Below, in pieces: positions 18,850-24,690 of a stretch of 64,000 nucleotides of DNA (its first letter is position 1; every line of letters starts with the position of its first letter). The notes under the pieces were generated by a model that made no database searches, was not told the origin of the DNA, and saw nothing but the letters and a program-made list of their open reading frames with translations. A program made the position numbers and the translations under genes. Location: contig JBEKKK010000003.1 of the NCBI GenBank assembly GCA_050010755.1, forward strand, positions 64,001 to 128,000, written 5' to 3'. This DNA comes from Candidatus Bathyarchaeia archaeon. Lineage in GTDB: Archaea; Thermoproteota; Bathyarchaeia; Bathyarchaeales; Bathycorpusculaceae.

Positions 18850-19638
18850 GTGAAATTAATGCCAGTGAGCAAGTCAGAACTTGTTACGAAACAGGGCTTT
18901 CAAGAGGCGAGAGACGCGGTTCTTAAGGCATTGGCAAGTAAGGGCTACCGGATAGAGCAGGATCTGCAAAACCAGATAGTCGCTAAACATCCACTTTCCG
19001 CTACTTATTACCCGCACGCCGTCGAAGTGTACATCAATGCTGAACCCGGCAAGACTACGATTCAAGCATCCATAGACCATCGCAGAAGCCAAGCCTACAC
19101 TGAAGAGTTAAGAGAAGAGATTGCCAAAAACCTGCAACCTCTACCACGAGTGGTTTTCACTTCTACGCAGCCTCCTACAAGCCAAGAACAACTCAACCGC
19201 CAAGCGGCGTTAGTTAATCCAAACTTCAACCGCGATGAACAGGTACTCTGGTCTCACAGAGTTACAAAGGGAGTATTCCACAAAGAAATCGTGGAGGAAT
19301 GGATAATCACTGGGCTGAGAGCCATTAAAAAGTACCCCGTAACAAAAGAGAACCCTCAGGAAAGATTCATATCCATCAGCTTGTCAGACGCTGACGTCGT
19401 GGTTATGAGGCAGCATCGTGAAACGAATGGACACCGCGTGGGCACTTTTGCAGGAACCACAGGAGGCGGCTTCTTCACGGGAACCACCACGGGCGTAACT
19501 CACAGCACGGGCATAACATACGGAGATCTCGTATTCCTGCAAGACAAAAAAGAAATAATCCGCTTCAGCGGCATAAGCGACCCACAAGACATCAACCGCA
19601 TGATACAAACAATCAAAAAAGAAAAAACGAGCGTGTAG
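18850..19638 (+). CDS. Hypothetical protein (C-terminal part resembles a bacterial PH-like domain)
   Basis: Long ORF with host codon usage; GDLVF...IRFSGISDP. Confidence 0.65.
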   Translation: MKLMPVSKSELVTKQGFQEARDAVLKALASKGYRIEQDLQNQIVAKHPLSATYYPHAVEVYINAEPGKTTIQASIDHRRSQAYTEELREEIAKNLQPLPRVVFTSTQPPTSQEQLNRQAALVNPNFNRDEQVLWSHRVTKGVFHKEIVEEWIITGLRAIKKYPVTKENPQERFISISLSDADVVVMRQHRETNGHRVGTFAGTTGGGFFTGTTTGVTHSTGITYGDLVFLQDKKEIIRFSGISDPQDINRMIQTIKKEKTSV

Positions 19639-19717
19639 ACGAAGGGAATGTGGGCGTCTTTTTTGCCGTTCAAGCACGAAGGATGTTGCGCTCTCTGATC
19701 TAATGGATGCAATGAAA

Positions 19718-20842
19718 TCAGGGGATAATTTCGCAACCGTTGTATTTCATGTATTCGAAATCTGCGGGTTTGACTTTGCCCATTTCAACAAGTTTTCTTA
19801 TTCTTGGCATTTCGCCACGGATTGCTTGTATCAGGTTGCGCACCGTGTTACATACGTGCGTGTACGCTTCTCGGCTCCAGCGTTTGGTCACTATTGCGTA
19901 GAGGCATCGGCCCCCACAAAGTTTGAAGGCGTCACATTCTAGGCATGGTTTGCCCATGTGAACTTTCCGCAGTCTTAGCGGATCTGCCCTACGAATGTGG
20001 CCGAGATAGTAATATTTTATTCCCCACATGGTTGGACATGGCACTATATAGCCGTCGGTTTGTATGGCGTAGTTAATCCATCCTCCTCCGCAACGCAAGA
20101 AACTGGACTTTTCGTCGAAGAGAAGCTGTTGAGCGATGCCGAGGAGTGGATAGAGCTTAAGAACCTGACCGTTTTCTTCCATGTTATCAACCCAGAATCT
20201 TGCAAGTTTTTGAACGCCAGGATTGTAGCTGATCTCACTCCAGTTTTTGAAGTCCCTTCTTTCGAAATCGTTTTTCCAGAAACCGGCGTTCAGTTGCCAA
20301 TGCACAGAAGAAAATGAGAATTCATCGTTGGCCACTAGCCACTTGGCTTGCTTGTATATGTCGGTCTGCTCCATCACTGTCATTCTGGCAATGAGTTCGC
20401 CTTCGAACCCGTTCTTCACTATCAGCTTCAGGTTGTCGATGACTTTTCTGAAAGTTCCTTTTCCCCGGTAAAAGTCAGTGAGCGCCTCATCGCCGTCTAT
20501 AGAAACGAGAATTGTGTGGAAGCGGTTGACGTATTCGGCTTCCAAGCGGTCGAGGAGCATGCCGTTGGTTTGAATCATGAAAAGTTTTGCTTGGACGTTG
20601 TCCATGATTTGTTTTATTTCCTCAGCACAGAGCAGTGGTTCTCCGCCGTAGAAGGTTAAGACACAGTCTGGGTCTTTGGTGCAGAACTTGTTCAGTGACT
20701 CGAGGTTATAGCTGATTTTTCTGGGCAGTGAATAGTCGACTTCGAAATTGGAGAAATCCTCGTCTACGTCCTCGCAGGCTTCGCCATAGCAGTATCTGCA
20801 CTCCAAGTTGCATTCAGTGGTAAGTATCACGTGAAAGAACAT
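19718..20842 (-). CDS. Radical SAM/SPASM enzyme, AF0577/TIGR04084-like putative peptide-modifying family
   Basis: CNLECRYC, FYGGEP, QTNG, VSIDG, SPASM RCGGG...G.I.PCP...C..C...CGGRC, C-terminal GCEIIP. Confidence 0.85.
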   Translation of the reverse strand: MFFHVILTTECNLECRYCYGEACEDVDEDFSNFEVDYSLPRKISYNLESLNKFCTKDPDCVLTFYGGEPLLCAEEIKQIMDNVQAKLFMIQTNGMLLDRLEAEYVNRFHTILVSIDGDEALTDFYRGKGTFRKVIDNLKLIVKNGFEGELIARMTVMEQTDIYKQAKWLVANDEFSFSSVHWQLNAGFWKNDFERRDFKNWSEISYNPGVQKLARFWVDNMEENGQVLKLYPLLGIAQQLLFDEKSSFLRCGGGWINYAIQTDGYIVPCPTMWGIKYYYLGHIRRADPLRLRKVHMGKPCLECDAFKLCGGRCLYAIVTKRWSREAYTHVCNTVRNLIQAIRGEMPRIRKLVEMGKVKPADFEYMKYNGCEIIP

Positions 20843-20874
20843 GTCCTTCGAGGCAAGAGGATGGACAGCCGCTC

Positions 20875-22152
20875 TTAAGCGTATTTCTCTTTCACTTTCT
20901 TCGCTTTTTCAAGATAGGTTTTCAGTTCCATTTCTTTGATCCTTTTTTCTGAAAGAGTTTCAGGAGCGTAGATGAGCGGCAGCATTGCCAAGAACAGGAA
21001 GAAGCTCGCTAATGAAAATGCGGCTGAGGTTTGAAAATTTGCTCCTATGAAGGGTTTCACTAGAGCGGAGAGAAAACTTGCTAGTAGGTAGGGAAGACCT
21101 CCCAGAAGATAGTATCTCTCCTTTTGATTGTCCTGTGCAAGATCTCCCCACATGGTCATGAAAAAAACTGCGGCGAACATTCCCCAGGCAACTCCATCAA
21201 ACAACGTGTATACGTACAACGTGGCTTGTGTTGTTGAGAAAAGGCTGAGAAAAGCGTACTCGAGACCTAGCAAGATGAATCCCATTATTGCGACGCGTTT
21301 TCTGCCCACTGTGTCCGCTAGAAAGCCCCCGACTAGGGCGAAAGCACCGGATATGGCGACTTCAACGATTGAAGAAAGGTTCGCTGCGTTGCCGAAGGAT
21401 TTCTGGAGAATTGGGGCTTCTGCGAAGTTCACGAGTGAGAACAGAACCCAGGGCAACAGGTATAGTATCATGTCTCTGCGTTCCAGGATGGATTTGTACG
21501 ACTGGGTGTGTGGAGTTGAGTCGGTCTGAAGTTCTTTTCTTGAAGCTAGATAGAACGCCATGAACCCGAAGAGTCTCCATATGGCGAGTACTCCTAGTGA
21601 CTGTGCGTTAGTTAGATTGCTAGTTAATGCGAGAAGGGCCAGGACGAAGAGCCCGATTGTGCCCCAGGTGAAGCCGCCGTAAGTCCCGCGGTTTTCGACA
21701 CTCGTCGCATCTCCAAAGTACGCAAGACACGAGGGAAGGCCGACACCAGTTGAAATCCCAAAAACAAGCGAAACCGAAAGATCTATGGAAAAGTTGCTGC
21801 CAAGCGAGACTGACAGAAGGGCTGTCATGGCTACTCCGAATAGCATCCATAAAGACAGCCACTTTACTCTTGAACGCCGGAATACCATGGTTCCCACAAA
21901 CGCTGCGACCGCGATTCCGGCATAGTAAGCTCCAAGAACCAGAAGGTACTCGTTTTGCGCTAACGGAAGAGACTTCGTGAGAAAGTAATTGGTCAGCACG
22001 TACCATACGATACTACTGGAAACTAGAAAGAGGGCAGGCGCAAACTTTCGTAAAGGTATCCTCTTCTCGAAGACCCTCGAATGGAGCATTTGCGTCGCGA
22101 CCCTTAAGAAATCAGTTGATCTCCGTACATAAAACGTTTCTTTACTCTGCAA
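20875..22152 (-). CDS. MFS-type membrane transporter
   Basis: About 12 TM helices; GGFLADTVGRKR motif A; C-terminal PETL. Confidence 0.85.
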   Translation of the reverse strand: MQSKETFYVRRSTDFLRVATQMLHSRVFEKRIPLRKFAPALFLVSSSIVWYVLTNYFLTKSLPLAQNEYLLVLGAYYAGIAVAAFVGTMVFRRSRVKWLSLWMLFGVAMTALLSVSLGSNFSIDLSVSLVFGISTGVGLPSCLAYFGDATSVENRGTYGGFTWGTIGLFVLALLALTSNLTNAQSLGVLAIWRLFGFMAFYLASRKELQTDSTPHTQSYKSILERRDMILYLLPWVLFSLVNFAEAPILQKSFGNAANLSSIVEVAISGAFALVGGFLADTVGRKRVAIMGFILLGLEYAFLSLFSTTQATLYVYTLFDGVAWGMFAAVFFMTMWGDLAQDNQKERYYLLGGLPYLLASFLSALVKPFIGANFQTSAAFSLASFFLFLAMLPLIYAPETLSEKRIKEMELKTYLEKAKKVKEKYA

Positions 22153-22169
22153 CAGTATTTATGTTCAAC

Positions 22170-22217
22170 AAAAACGCTTAATTAGTAGATGTGTTCTACA
22201 CATATTCTAGTGAGGGA
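22170..22217 (+). promoter_or_regulatory. BRE/TATA (AAAAACG-CTTAATTA), inverted repeat ATGTGT-TCT-ACACAT and SD GTGAGGGA upstream of a micropeptide ORF
   Basis: TATA-like 22177-22184, inverted repeat 22189-22203, SD 22210-22217, ATG 22223. Confidence 0.55.
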
Positions 22218-22222
22218 TTGAG

Positions 22223-22267
22223 ATGAAGGCAAAACGAGAAGTTCCAGTTAGATTCTTCCCACCGTAA
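22223..22267 (+). CDS. Candidate 14-aa peptide MKAKREVPVRFFPP
   Basis: ATG with well-spaced SD and promoter; fills the gap between the MFS and prenyltransferase genes; below ORF-track cutoff. Confidence 0.5.
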   Translation: MKAKREVPVRFFPP

Positions 22268-22270
22268 TTT

Positions 22271-23278
22271 CTACAAATCTTCGAGAGTAGCTTTTACCAT
22301 GTTTGCAAGTAGTTTCTTTGTTTCTTGATTTCTTATTGATGAAAGTGTCCTCTGCGCTTGACCTATGAGATTCAACATGTGGTTTCTGAGGTTAGCAACG
22401 GATTTTGATTCCATCACGATGTCGAGCAACTCTTCAATTTCTTTGTTGGTGAGTTCTTTTTTGCTGAGAAGTCTCTTGACGTCCGTGCTTGAGTCTTTGT
22501 CTTGGAAAGCGTAAAGCACGGGAATGGGGTAGGCTTCGGTCTTTATCCGTTGATTGAGTTCTTCGGCCTCGAAGATATCTATGAATTCCTCCCTAAGTGT
22601 GGCAAGTGTTCCCATTATTCTTCCGTACCGTGCCAATGCCTTGCACTCTTCAGCAGTTCCTCCACTGAGGATAGCTGCAATATTCATGTCCGCCTCAATG
22701 CTCGCTGCTTTATTCTCTATGATCTTGATGTATTCATCTGGAGAAGCATCTAATCTTCGCCTGAGACCCAGCTCGGAGGCGTGGGCATTTCCAACATCGA
22801 AAAGCGAGACCCTCAGGGTGGCGAAGATTCTGTCTATTTTCTCGGAAGCCAGCTTGTTAGTAGCTTTTCCCATCAAGGTGAAACCGTATATCATGAACGC
22901 GTTTCCCAGCAGAAGTGCGACATTCTCTCCGTATTTGCCGAAGACGGTTGGATAATTGTGCTTGGTTTGCGAACCGTCAATTATGTCGTCATGGATGTCG
23001 AAGGATGCACCCAACATCGCTATGGCAACCTGGGCTTCTAAATGGTTTGCAGGATCTCCTCCGACTGCTTCGCAGGCTAGTGAGAAGATTCCGGGGTGCG
23101 TAAAATCGTTCCAATATGAGAAGTAGTGCTGCAGAGCTTGACTTAGTTCTTGATACTCGATTTTCTGAGAGAGCATGGACTTCCTTACAAACATTTGGCA
23201 ATCTTTGCTGCGTTTGATTAGATCCTCGATAATCAATTGCGATTGTTTCTGATTCTTCTTGGCGCCCATGGGATCCAA
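22271..23278 (-). CDS. Polyprenyl synthetase-fold protein with degenerate motifs (ComQ-like)
   Basis: First DDIID retained; GGKRxRP and the RRG after DDxxD absent (DFTHP; KHN); second motif REEFID. Confidence 0.8.
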   Translation of the reverse strand: MDPMGAKKNQKQSQLIIEDLIKRSKDCQMFVRKSMLSQKIEYQELSQALQHYFSYWNDFTHPGIFSLACEAVGGDPANHLEAQVAIAMLGASFDIHDDIIDGSQTKHNYPTVFGKYGENVALLLGNAFMIYGFTLMGKATNKLASEKIDRIFATLRVSLFDVGNAHASELGLRRRLDASPDEYIKIIENKAASIEADMNIAAILSGGTAEECKALARYGRIMGTLATLREEFIDIFEAEELNQRIKTEAYPIPVLYAFQDKDSSTDVKRLLSKKELTNKEIEELLDIVMESKSVANLRNHMLNLIGQAQRTLSSIRNQETKKLLANMVKATLEDL

Positions 23279-23535
23279 CTTTACTGATTGTTCTATTTAA
23301 GACCTAACGGCTAAAAGGACGGGGCACGGCCTAGTTTATACTGCATTTTCTCCTGACTATCAGGTACGCCTCTCCAGGAACGTTACCAGGCGCAGAAATC
23401 ATGAATTGTTTGTTCTACCCTTTCACTTTGCTTTTGCCGATCATTAAACTCATTTTAGGCTGCTAAATAACAATCAGAGCTGATTATGCTATTTTAGCCT
23501 TGAATCTTTGGACGCGAATGTTTCCATAACTTCTG

Positions 23536-23862
23536 CTATTCAATGTCTTTTCCGCTAAGCTGTTCCTTCAAAATGTCCATGTATGTTTCAATGTATTGTT
23601 GACCCTTCCTAGTCAGCGTGTACACCTTTCTCGTTCTTCCACCCTGTCTTTGGTTTTCGCTGGTGACAAAGCTTTCACGTTCCAGCGCGTTCAGTAGCGG
23701 ATATAAGGCTCCATGTCTGAGGTTAACGCTGAACCTTTTTTCCGCTTGTTTCTTTATCATGTAACCCCACATTGGCTGCGTTTGAAGGAGTCTCAGTATT
23801 TGGATGTCAAGAAGGTTTCTGGTGATGCGTTGTACAAGTCCCTCTTTATAGACTTCTGCCAA
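23536..23862 (-). CDS. PadR family transcriptional regulator
   Basis: IL.LL..QPMWGY...GALYPLL..LE...RKVYTLT..G. Confidence 0.9.
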   Translation of the reverse strand: MAEVYKEGLVQRITRNLLDIQILRLLQTQPMWGYMIKKQAEKRFSVNLRHGALYPLLNALERESFVTSENQRQGGRTRKVYTLTRKGQQYIETYMDILKEQLSGKDIE

Positions 23863-24105
23863 TTAGTTCACGGTCTATTTATGTCCAATTCTGTACTGGT
23901 CCATGCTTCAGCTTATTAGATTTACGTTGAAACGGTACGATTGAATATGCCTGGTTATGCTTCTTTATGTCTGGCATAAGCATGAACCTTTATATCGTCG
24001 TCTAGGCCGTATAAAGACTCAAGATATGTCATAAGAAAGACGTATCGTATCAACGTCCAACAACAAAACTGTTGGACAAACAAACACAACAGAAGGAAAC
24101 ACAAC

Positions 24106-24519
24106 ATGAACAACACAAAAGAAGTACAAGCCAAACTGATGAAAGGCTTGTTGGACCTGATAATACTACAATTCCTGAACGGCCAGCCCATGCACGGTTA
24201 TCAGATAATCACAAAAATCCGAAAAACCTTCGGAGTCTACTTCGGCCCAAGCACCATATATCCGCTTCTTGGAACGCTGGAAAAAAAGAGATACGTGAAA
24301 AGCGAATGGGACATGAGCACCGAAAGACCGAGAAAAGTTTACAAACTGACCACAGATGGCCAGAATCTGCTGAACTTCACAGAAGACTCGCTCAATTTCA
24401 TTTGCAGAAAAATAGGCAACCCTGGAGTATCCAAAAACGACATGCCGGAAGCCACCGTTCAACACTCAGCACTGCGCCCCTTCCTGAGAAAACTCGAAGA
24501 ACCAAAACCAATGATGTAG
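24106..24519 (+). CDS. PadR family transcriptional regulator
   Basis: QPMHGYQII...PSTIYPLL..LE...RPRKVYKLT..G. Confidence 0.9.
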   Translation: MNNTKEVQAKLMKGLLDLIILQFLNGQPMHGYQIITKIRKTFGVYFGPSTIYPLLGTLEKKRYVKSEWDMSTERPRKVYKLTTDGQNLLNFTEDSLNFICRKIGNPGVSKNDMPEATVQHSALRPFLRKLEEPKPMM

Positions 24520-24690
24520 AGCCACAATTCCCCCACTTCTTTAATCGCCCCCAGATGAAGGCCCAACAAGCTCCAAGTCGTTCAAGAGGAGACCATGCAA
24601 GCTTGACAGCAATCCAATCTGGGGGCATGAGTCATCTTCTGAACATTGCATAGCAGTAATGTGACTTAGCCTAGATGATGATACATCAAA

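Follow-up and report, generated by a model that had tools for sequence, protein, structure and literature searches.

A conserved micro-peptide gene beside a degenerate polyprenyl-synthase-fold enzyme in Bathyarchaeia: a candidate archaeal peptide-prenylation locus

Does an unannotated open reading frame of 14 codons in a genome of Bathyarchaeia encode a peptide, and if so, what is its relation to the enzyme gene that it faces? The question is raised by a 64,000-nucleotide (nt) stretch of DNA from a Candidatus Bathyarchaeia archaeon (assembly GCA_050010755.1, contig JBEKKK010000003.1, positions 64,001–128,000), here termed the window; the genome consists of 2.19 Mb in 8 contigs. The small open reading frame (sORF) is situated in a gap of 118 nt between a gene for an enzyme of the polyprenyl synthase fold (PPS-like) and a gene for a transporter of the major facilitator superfamily (MFS). 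It is convergent with the PPS-like gene and the two stops are 3 nt apart. A first-pass annotation had described the open reading frame, a TATA box, an inverted repeat, a Shine-Dalgarno (SD) sequence, the gene order and the motifs of the enzyme, and had proposed a prenylated-peptide system resembling ComQ/ComX. Its statements on the sequence itself all hold on re-reading.

Sixty-four loci were examined: the window, 27 related loci (set 1, 28 loci with the window), 20 loci around more distant members of the enzyme family, paralogs included, at 26–40% identity (set 2), and 16 loci from outside the class (set 3). Eighteen loci were fetched outside the class; two of these, L063 and L064, are canonical synthases and were used as internal controls. 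A clear sORF is found beside PPS-like in 25/28, 13/20 and 10/16 loci, respectively, i.e. in 48 of 64. The homologous open reading frames encode 8–24 amino acids (aa) with the consensus M-(K/R-rich)-P-[VI]-R-x-W, that is, an initial methionine, a stretch rich in lysine and arginine, the P-[VI]-R motif and a short hydrophobic or aromatic tail. Set 1 peptides, of 13–21 codons, display M, the K/R-rich stretch, [VITLMK]-P-[VIA]-R and then 2–7 residues in 24 of the 27 loci as well as in the window, e.g. MKVKKRNVPVRIFPV, MKKVKKRKVPVRTLPL and MKATKKREIPVRVTG. Scanning the gaps beside homologs for conserved short open reading frames with a basic N-terminus and an aromatic or proline C-terminus, as the first-pass annotation had suggested, thus gave a positive result.

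The sORF is a real peptide-coding gene under purifying selection at the level of the peptide. The possibility that the frame is open by chance, within promoter DNA that is itself conserved, was considered, since other intergenic DNA at these loci is conserved too and spurious frames look conserved; coding tests were applied because other frames through the same gap DNA look conserved as well. In set 1 the entropies at codon positions 1, 2 and 3 are 0.90, 0.66 and 1.51, calculated over an 11-codon block from 23 of the 25 sORFs (L011 and L025 are left out by a filter on basic residues and distance to the stop). The second class shows 0.37, 0.38 and 0.98 (10 loci, one copy each). The invariant proline is encoded by CCA, CCT, CCG and CCC, and arginine by both CGN and AGR codons. 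Among codons that differ between pairs of sequences, 951 of 2177 (44%) are synonymous in the sORF frame; the five other frames give 155, 62, 263, 649 and 117 (3–33%). The sORF shows in-frame length changes with conserved ATG, SD and stop, and it persists at 26–40% enzyme identity and in the second class, where the flanking DNA is unalignable. A loose pattern for the peptide gives 239 matches in the 2.19-Mb genome, approximately 1.1 per 10 kb on both strands. Because a matching open reading frame lies within about 150 nt of PPS-like in 48/64 loci, and because of the coding signature, the sORF is beyond chance. The variability at third positions, the switching between CGN and AGR and among CCN codons, and the synonymous excess in the sORF frame refute the chance frame, the probability of which is negligible. 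The same locus count and coding signature bear out the earlier proposal of a genuine small gene tied to a degenerate enzyme of the polyprenyl synthase fold.

The linkage of sORF and PPS-like spans Bathyarchaeia and at least one other class of the phylum. The PPS-like family is found in 38 of 201 sampled genomes of the class (profile E ≤ 1e-40), mainly in the window's family (21 of 27 genomes positive) and several others, and in 56 of 401 sampled genomes of the phylum, including 19 of 32 of one family outside the class. One public locus of the outside-class branch is labelled Nitrososphaerota.

Ten of the set 2 loci carry a convergent sORF at the enzyme stop: MTTKRKKKEAKLKPPRLFSW, MQKKLPVRLYWR, MQKKLPIRAWWR, MEKKLPVRFWWA, MARKKKVHFPTRNLFGWGTT, MARKKKAPKVPARPISDWGLHI, MKKKKRPTRNLSWWG, MRPLRFWF (8 residues), MNKKKLKIPVRFWL and MKSRKIIRALGW, the last without proline. 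Three loci from one other family, L037–L039, show the order MFS<- ->sORF->PPS instead of PPS-> <-sORF MFS->. Here the sORFs (MMSVSTLRGFLTRSPVQTW, MSISALARWLTKSPIRPWG and MSVKALRGSLKGSPVRSW) are on the same strand as PPS-like, 115–126 nt upstream of it, and are preceded by the SD sequence GGAGGTG. The set 2 remainder consists of three doubtful loci and four without an sORF. In set 3, 10 of 16 loci have convergent sORFs encoding MK[SNTK]YNPTP[VI]R[LIF]W..., MKTYSPTMIRFWH or MRKYNPVVVRTWLP; of the other six, four have none, one is doubtful, and in one an open reading frame upstream of the enzyme (MKVKALKAKLGVTPIYFWFP) is probably an sORF of this kind. Two or three sORFs in tandem, each with its own SD, are found in L048, L049, L050, L053 and L059, all from the other class. 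The tandem copies are near-identical within a genome and show synonymous differences between genomes. Tandem copies are typical of precursor-peptide genes.

A reciprocal search was made in a metagenome collection with a degenerate DNA pattern for YNPTP[VI]RxW and gave 13 stretches. Six are sORFs with a start, and all six abut a convergent PPS-like gene (51–100% identity to the L048 enzyme) and an MFS gene. The other seven consist of three sequences seen twice, start-less or inside larger open reading frames in GC-rich DNA, and a 19-codon frame, presumed bacterial, between genes for CHU_C and Ig-like secretion domains. No orphan copy of the peptide gene is seen among the 13. The MFS gene is the neighbour of PPS-like in 28/28 loci of set 1, 18/20 of set 2 and 9/16 of set 3, with two more set 3 loci ending at a contig edge, and the proposed link of the transporter to the system is supported for most loci. 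In L039 and L056 an sORF is found beside PPS-like with no MFS gene detected nearby, although the upstream DNA of L039 is partly masked. The sORF follows PPS-like when the gene order changes, and the core of the locus is PPS-like plus the micro-peptide, usually with MFS and, in many Bathyarchaeia, with the two PadR genes.

The three set 1 loci that lack a clear sORF are of a particular kind. L018 and L019 contain unrelated tiny open reading frames and lack the palindrome described below; L020 contains an sORF remnant without a start and keeps the palindrome. All three are low-GC loci of Bathyarchaeia with apparently intact PPS-like and MFS genes. They are natural peptide-less variants, which could tell whether PPS-like works alone. 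A further observation concerns L006 (DBOM01000026.1), a 5-kb contig labelled 'Caldiserica bacterium UBA646', in which PadR, PPS-like, sORF, MFS and radical SAM genes are clustered as in Bathyarchaeia. Its enzyme nests inside the Bathyarchaeia clade and the contig is probably mis-binned.

What does the enzyme do? PPS-like matches PF00348 (polyprenyl_synt) with 82.6 bits (gathering score 27). Its best NCBIfam match is IdsA, with 114 bits against a cut-off of 468, and it falls below the cut-off of every synthase model; four distant family members give 91–125 bits against the same cut-off of 468. No ComQ-named family is found among its NCBIfam matches at E ≤ 0.01, a library that may hold no ComQ model. 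The genome has two further polyprenyl synthases, 24% and 19% identical to PPS-like, which makes PPS-like an extra paralog. In a quick maximum-likelihood tree of 66 rows (the broken or short rows L024_1, L024_2, L053_1 and L059_1 are left out), 62 PPS-like rows are split from four canonical synthases with an SH-aLRT support of 100. In a protein atlas PPS-like clusters only with its own kind, labelled polyprenyl synthetase and mostly from Bathyarchaeota. Tandem paralogs or fragments of PPS-like are seen in L011 (7001–7990 and 8306–9256), L028 (6000–6818 and 7048–8034) and L001 (7001–7393). Where two copies are present, in L011 and L028, it is the second that adjoins the sORF; the copies differ in their active-site motifs.

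In the isoprenyl diphosphate synthase (IPPS) family, the FARM (first aspartate-rich motif) is the site of Mg and allylic diphosphate, and the GGKRxRP and RRG residues bind isopentenyl diphosphate (IPP). The window's enzyme keeps the FARM as FDIHDDIID. D97, D98 and D101 are invariant in 22 sequences, and D[IL]HDDI[IV]D is found in nearly all 62 family rows. NDFTHPG replaces GGKRxRP, KHN replaces RRG, and ATLREEFID stands in place of FQxxDDxxD, the SARM (second aspartate-rich motif). These unusual sequences are themselves conserved among 22 homologs of 48–100% identity as WNDFTHPGxF, FDIHDDIIDxSxxKH, GNAHAxE and LREEFIDxFExEELNQR. The geranylgeranyl diphosphate (GGPP) synthase of Pyrococcus horikoshii (1wy0) is the best match both by sequence (E = 2.8e-26) and by structure, and in the profile-to-PDB alignment NDFTHPG falls on GGKRVRP, KHG on RRG and ATLREEFID on FQIWDDVLD. 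The lysine of the KT motif is kept. Across the family GGKRxRP, RRG and the glutamine of FQxxDD are replaced, and an invariant arginine directly precedes the second motif; in the same alignment the canonical controls L063 and L064 keep KRLRP, RRG/RG, GQ and FQI[RK]DD. Given the established roles of these motifs in the IPPS family, PPS-like is predicted to bind an allylic diphosphate through the FARM and to be unable to bind IPP in the normal way. An AF2 model (pLDDT 91, pTM 0.89) shows the all-alpha fold of trans-IPPS enzymes. Foldseek gives a TM score of 0.82 to 1wy0 (21% identity) and of 0.72 to the indole prenyltransferase Ord1, which is also matched by the PPS-like sequence profile (E = 1e-17).

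The peptide and the enzyme both differ between the window's clade and the rest of the family. In the quick tree the window's enzyme belongs to a nested clade with a support of 100, which comprises 25 rows. Outside this clade all 23 clear peptides contain tryptophan 1–6 residues past the arginine, mostly two residues past it (R+2); in the L037 peptide glutamine is found in place of the arginine before the tryptophan. In set 1 tryptophan is present in only 3 of 25 sORFs (L011, L017 and L025), and it is absent from the window peptide (…VPVRFFPP). Of these three only L017 belongs to the window's clade: L025 is outside it and the L011 sORF abuts the paralog L011_2. The enzymes of the window's clade carry THPG, AHAxE and REEFID; elsewhere (S/T/A)RPA, AEAxE and RDDxxD are found. 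The Trp-less, EExxD state of the window is derived, because Trp and RDDxxD occur outside the nested clade. Peptide and enzyme changed on the same branch, which suggests co-evolution, although this is a single event and beyond statistical testing. The earlier caveat, that ComX is modified on tryptophan and that this peptide has none, is therefore softened: it stands for the window's peptide but not for the 23 peptides outside the clade. Trp-type, Trp-less and peptide-lost lineages, each with corresponding changes in the enzyme motifs, form a natural series for studying acceptor specificity in the IPPS fold.

By analogy with ComQ/ComX, PalQ/PalX and StheQ/StheX, these features may be read as a ribosomal peptide that is prenylated by an enzyme lacking the IPP site and is then exported, a reading in which confidence is evenly divided. 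PPS-like would not elongate isoprenoid chains but would ionise a prenyl diphosphate (C10–C20) and transfer the prenyl group to the peptide. The cationic peptide, once lipidated, would be exported by the MFS protein or placed by it in the outer leaflet, and a PadR dimer, bound to the palindrome that separates the TATA box from the start, would gate production of the peptide. The conserved tryptophan two residues past the invariant arginine would serve as the acceptor in most lineages. In the window's clade the acceptor would be the arginine guanidinium or a terminus, or there would be none. The biological role could be that of a signal, an antimicrobial lipopeptide used in antagonism, or a membrane factor. 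Confidence falls from the joint action of enzyme and peptide through prenyl transfer, MFS export and PadR gating to a role in signalling or antagonism. A bolder form states that archaea of at least two classes lipidate ribosomal micro-peptides of 8–24 residues by way of an unrecognised branch of the IPPS fold, independent of ComQ and with MFS export, and that the window's clade prenylates a non-indole acceptor, most plausibly arginine. Taken as a whole this form is unlikely. To our knowledge no enzyme of the IPPS fold prenylates arginine.

Several observations weigh against prenylation of the peptide. According to a 2026 review (PMC13290415) and the StheQ preprint, a conserved glutamine one helical turn upstream of the SARM or pseudo-SARM (Q212 in StheQ) is implicated in positioning the indole and the diphosphate. 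Recognition of the indole in ComQ, PalQ and Ord1 is ascribed to this glutamine. By this one checkable diagnostic residue, which is absent from PPS-like, the enzyme appears not to be a member of the ComQ family. At the position of the FQxxDD glutamine the family displays T, M, V, I or L. The Trp-type lineages retain an intact SARM (RDDxxD) and one arginine of region I, and residual synthase or terpene-synthase chemistry is possible in them. Foldseek places ordinary GGPP and long-chain synthases above Ord1. At the R+2 position the window's clade shows F, L, Y, I, V, T, A or G, i.e. no conserved nucleophilic aromatic residue, and so tryptophan prenylation cannot be the mechanism there. The peptides have no recognisable leader. 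A clear sORF is lacking in 16 of the 64 PPS-like loci, L018 and L019 among them, and the linkage within Bathyarchaeia is partly phylogenetic inertia. In the only RNA run found, a freshwater metatranscriptome that matched 8% of the sampled words of 19700–24600, a 434-nt contig of 100% identity lies on PadR2 only (24077–24510). No contig of this run covers the sORF, PPS-like, MFS or the radical SAM gene, which is uninformative for the sORF.

Some of the same observations fit another arrangement, in which the enzyme makes or transforms a small-molecule isoprenoid that MFS exports or flips, e.g. as a terpene-synthase-like enzyme or one that forms an unusual prenyl diphosphate. The micro-peptide, without modification, would then be a subunit of the enzyme or the transporter with an accessory or regulatory function. 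For instance, P-[VI]-R and the polybasic N-terminus could dock on the acidic REEFIDxFExEE helix or supply the missing basic residues. In the window's clade R+2 drifts among hydrophobic residues, which is more in keeping with a binding contact than with a nucleophile. The family has both a FARM and a second motif of acidic character, EExxD or, in other lineages, DDxxDxxxD, and the same two motifs are the metal motifs of class I terpene synthases. The diagnostic glutamine of peptide Trp-prenyltransferases is missing, and L018 and L019 keep enzyme and MFS without the peptide. On the other hand, tandem sORFs and a strict near-C-terminal tryptophan in 23 of 23 peptides outside the window's clade are typical of substrates, and no 14-residue subunit of an IPPS-fold enzyme was found in the literature covered here (subscription-only papers and supplements are outside its scope). 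The subunit is a possible explanation, though it is on the unlikely side.

The features of the locus are given in Table 1. The start of PPS-like is placed at Met4 because homologs begin there, and for MFS the alignments with homologs begin at about residue 17–28, which makes the ATG at 22089 the probable start.

Table 1. Features of the locus, with positions in the window
Feature	Position	Strand	Remarks
Radical SAM/SPASM gene (rSAM)	19718–20842	-	TIGR04084; 32 nt downstream of MFS
MFS transporter	20875–22152	-	Pfam PF07690; divergent from sORF
Second conserved element ATGTTCAACA	22162–22171	no strand	Short palindrome TGTT-C-AACA; in the intergenic region shared by sORF and MFS
TATA-like box CTTAATTAGTA	22178–22188	+	A-rich (BRE-like) stretch 5′ of the box; presumed sORF promoter
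Palindrome ATGTGT-TCT-ACACAT	22189–22203	+	Between TATA-like box and sORF; candidate operator
SD-like sequence GTGAGGGA	22211–22218	+	Ends 4 nt before the sORF ATG
Micro-peptide sORF, 14 codons, MKAKREVPVRFFPP	22223–22267	+	ATG to TAA; member of a conserved peptide family
PPS-like (polyprenyl_synt-fold enzyme)	22271–23269	-	332 aa from Met4; Pfam PF00348; open reading frame listed as 22271–23278
PadR1 (PadR-family regulator 1)	23536–23862	-	Pfam PF03551; upstream of PPS-like on the same strand
PadR2 (PadR-family regulator 2)	24106–24519	+	Pfam PF03551; divergent from PadR1

Alignment of 23 regions upstream of sORFs shows a conserved order: TGTTCAACA, CTTA(AG/AT)TAGTA, the palindrome, GTGAGGGA or GGAGG, and ATG. 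CTTA..TAGTA is kept in at least 80% of the 23 loci. SD variants in the alignment are GTGAGGGA, GGAGG and GAGGGG, and SD-like words precede most homologous sORFs. L037 and L038, two of the loci with a changed gene order, also have the ATGTTCAACA element upstream of their sORFs. From the architecture of archaeal promoters, the TATA-like box is presumed to be that of the sORF. The palindrome displays conserved arms and a variable spacer in the 23 loci (ATGTGT-NNN-ACACAT). The window contains a single exact copy; at up to two mismatches there are 2 matches against 2.3 expected, so that it is not unusual as a bare pattern, and the weight given to it comes from its conservation across loci, not from rarity. 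An operator between the TATA box and the start is in a position typical of archaeal repressors, and the ATGT...ACAT half-sites may resemble the PadR operator consensus. The palindrome is a candidate operator to which a PadR protein may bind.

PadR1 and PadR2 match PF03551 with 70 and 68 bits (cut-off 27). PadR1 is found upstream of PPS-like in 18 of 27 set 1 loci and in L028, L029, L031–L035 and L041. What the first-pass annotation had read as an operator-like repeat with regulators is upheld to the extent that the palindrome at the sORF promoter is conserved and PadR genes are nearby. The spacer between PadR1 and PPS-like (23270–23535) is approximately 265 nt in the window versus 12–90 nt in most related loci; it may represent an insertion or an extra promoter region.

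The position of the sORF also permits a different function, that of a cis-acting arrest or leader peptide, the translation of which would sense a metabolite and control transcription into, or antisense to, PPS-like. P-[VI]-R-x-W is conserved a few codons before the stop, and some arrest peptides, e.g. TnaC and SecM, carry conserved residues close to the stop. In L037–L039 and L056 the sORF is 31–126 nt upstream of PPS-like on the same strand, and where the two genes converge, as is common, a transcript of the sORF would enter the 3′ end of PPS-like in antisense. However, the sORF occurs in tandem copies with an SD each, between 1 and 9 residues separate the motif from the stop, and in most loci the two genes are convergent, so that there is no downstream gene to attenuate. 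No terminator-like element was found in the gap, and an Rfam scan of 21800–22500 gave no match at E ≤ 1. An arrest peptide is thus very improbable. A known RNA as the explanation of the gap was rejected on the same scan.

The MFS protein matches PF07690 with 57.5 bits (cut-off 33.4) and otherwise shows only weak partial matches to DtpA, EntS and BcbE. The gene that follows it encodes a radical SAM/SPASM enzyme (rSAM), a member of TIGR04084 (rSAM_AF0577; 319.5 bits, cut-off 225) with the CxxxCxxC motif formed by C11, C15 and C18 in TECNLECRYC. Its best 120 homologs are 71–99% identical. The first-pass annotation had counted it as a part of the system, and it could have been recruited in the window's family, where it would act on the Trp-less peptide, e.g. 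by introducing a cross-link (C-C or C-N) or an epimerised residue, beside prenylation or in its place. The rSAM gene is found after MFS in 24 of 27 set 1 loci, with two of the three misses cut by contig ends, and the MFS-rSAM spacers are 22–75 nt in most loci of the window's family, an operon-like spacing. The family with an adjacent rSAM is also the family with loss of Trp and changed enzyme motifs, and TIGR04084 is nearest to the peptide-modifying SPASM maturases (PapB, 1.8e-30).

The wider distribution of the rSAM gene points the other way. It is not found in the 20 set 2 or the 16 set 3 loci. Among window-family genomes with both genes, the distance between rSAM and PPS-like is no more than 5 kb in 18 of 20, versus 0 of 12 outside the family, where rSAM is distant or on another contig in all 12. 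Of the 201 sampled genomes of the class, 94 contain rSAM: it is found in 32 of the 38 that have PPS-like (not found in the other 6) and in 62 of the 163 that do not, and the family also occurs in Sulfolobus acidocaldarius, used as a control. Fourteen contexts elsewhere show no recurring neighbour family, apart from two syntenic related genomes and one family seen twice. The gene is single copy in the window's genome and at least 70% identical across the class. The peptide has no cysteine, and the rSAM domain begins at residue 5, which leaves no room for an N-terminal RiPP recognition element. A peptide-modifying role for the rSAM is improbable. Because it is adjacent only in the window's family, is more widely distributed than PPS-like and lacks conserved neighbours, it is probably a bystander, a neighbour by descent in one family, and the claim that it belongs to the system is not sustained. 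TIGR04084 looks like a stand-alone housekeeping enzyme.

Two side observations concern this end of the locus. A TIGR04084 member 72% identical to the window's (P0240) is filed under Fervidobacterium pennivorans and represents either contamination or a recent transfer. Downstream of rSAM, a 262-codon open reading frame (18850–19638, plus strand) is without matches in Pfam and NCBIfam (E ≤ 0.01), and tblastn (E ≤ 1e-5) gave no counterpart in the 27 related loci.

The literature covered yielded no prenylated peptide or peptide pheromone from archaea, no archaeal peptide transferase of the IPPS fold and no report of the PPS-like/micro-peptide family. Searches on the function of TIGR04084/AF0577 returned only unrelated work, and those on Bathyarchaeia with peptides made on the ribosome and modified after translation (RiPPs) and radical SAM, or on small proteins of Bathyarchaeota, nothing relevant. 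If prenylation of the micro-peptide is correct, no prenylated RiPP or pheromone system would have been described in archaea before this one. The family also makes it possible to ask if lipidated peptides serve uncultured Bathyarchaeia and their relatives in signalling or antagonism. An IPPS-fold transferase with an adjacent short peptide gene is of a kind already known. New are the archaeal host, the independent enzyme branch, the ultra-short precursors, the MFS and PadR context and the derived Trp-less clade, which would need new chemistry if its peptides are still modified. Genes of 8–24 codons, which are invisible to gene callers, are recoverable by synteny and codon statistics. A soluble enzyme of 332 residues and a peptide of 14–15 residues constitute a cheap and concrete system to examine.

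Comparison with characterised systems shows which parts are shared. According to the review cited above, bacterial trans-isoprenyl diphosphate synthase-like (trans-IDS-like) peptide prenyltransferases keep the FARM, repurpose the SARM region for the acceptor and act on a Trp at or near the C-terminus, and all those characterised target Trp (PMC13290415). The class includes ComQ, the P domain of ChrPC, PalQ and StheQ (PMC13290415; PMC10853753; StheQ preprint); ComQ, PalQ and StheQ are bacterial. StheX carries its Trp second from the C-terminus (StheQ preprint), and PalQ uses C5–C20 donors to prenylate a Trp at or close to the terminus of a ribosomal peptide encoded in a small cluster (PMC10853753).

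ComQ/ComX of Bacillus subtilis and StheQ/StheX of Sphaerobacter thermophilus resemble the locus in the trans-IPPS fold, the retained FARM and the adjacent short peptide gene. ComQ and StheQ (IPR033965) have lost normal IPP handling, and PPS-like, to judge by its motifs, appears to have done likewise. ComX, StheX and PalX carry a near-C-terminal Trp, as do most of the archaeal peptides, while those of the window's clade do not. The region of the second acidic motif is proposed as the acceptor site in ComQ; in PPS-like it reads REEFID in the window's clade and RDDxxD in most others. PPS-like branches with sequences resembling archaeal GGPP synthases and displays no ComQ features, the glutamine upstream of the SARM included. 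The archaeal peptide has 8–24 residues and no long leader, compared with 55 or more residues in ComX, and its partners are MFS and PadR instead of the ComP/ComA two-component system. PalQ/PalX/PalP of Paenibacillus alvei and the ChrPC P domain likewise combine an enzyme of the IPPS superfamily with a ribosomal peptide in a small cluster. However, PalX is an NHLP-type precursor with a cleaved leader in a cluster with a histidine kinase, whereas the archaeal locus shows neither leader domain nor kinase and includes MFS; the motif changes of PalQ-type enzymes also differ from those of PPS-like.

Ord1 (PDB 9v4g–9v4i), an all-alpha indole prenyltransferase, has the same fold but farnesylates free tryptophan, with a catalytic Gln/Asn near the SARM, and it ranks below ordinary synthases when PPS-like is the query. 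A canonical GGPP synthase shares with PPS-like the FARM and the lysine of the KT motif, and its GGKRxRP, RRG and FQxxDD are replaced in PPS-like. PapB ranthipeptides, streptide (StrABC), PqqA/PqqE and MftA/MftC combine a short peptide with a SPASM enzyme, a layout that is similar, with a transporter, only in the window's family. The micro-peptide locus may be the first archaeal counterpart of the bacterial lipid-tagged signalling peptides.

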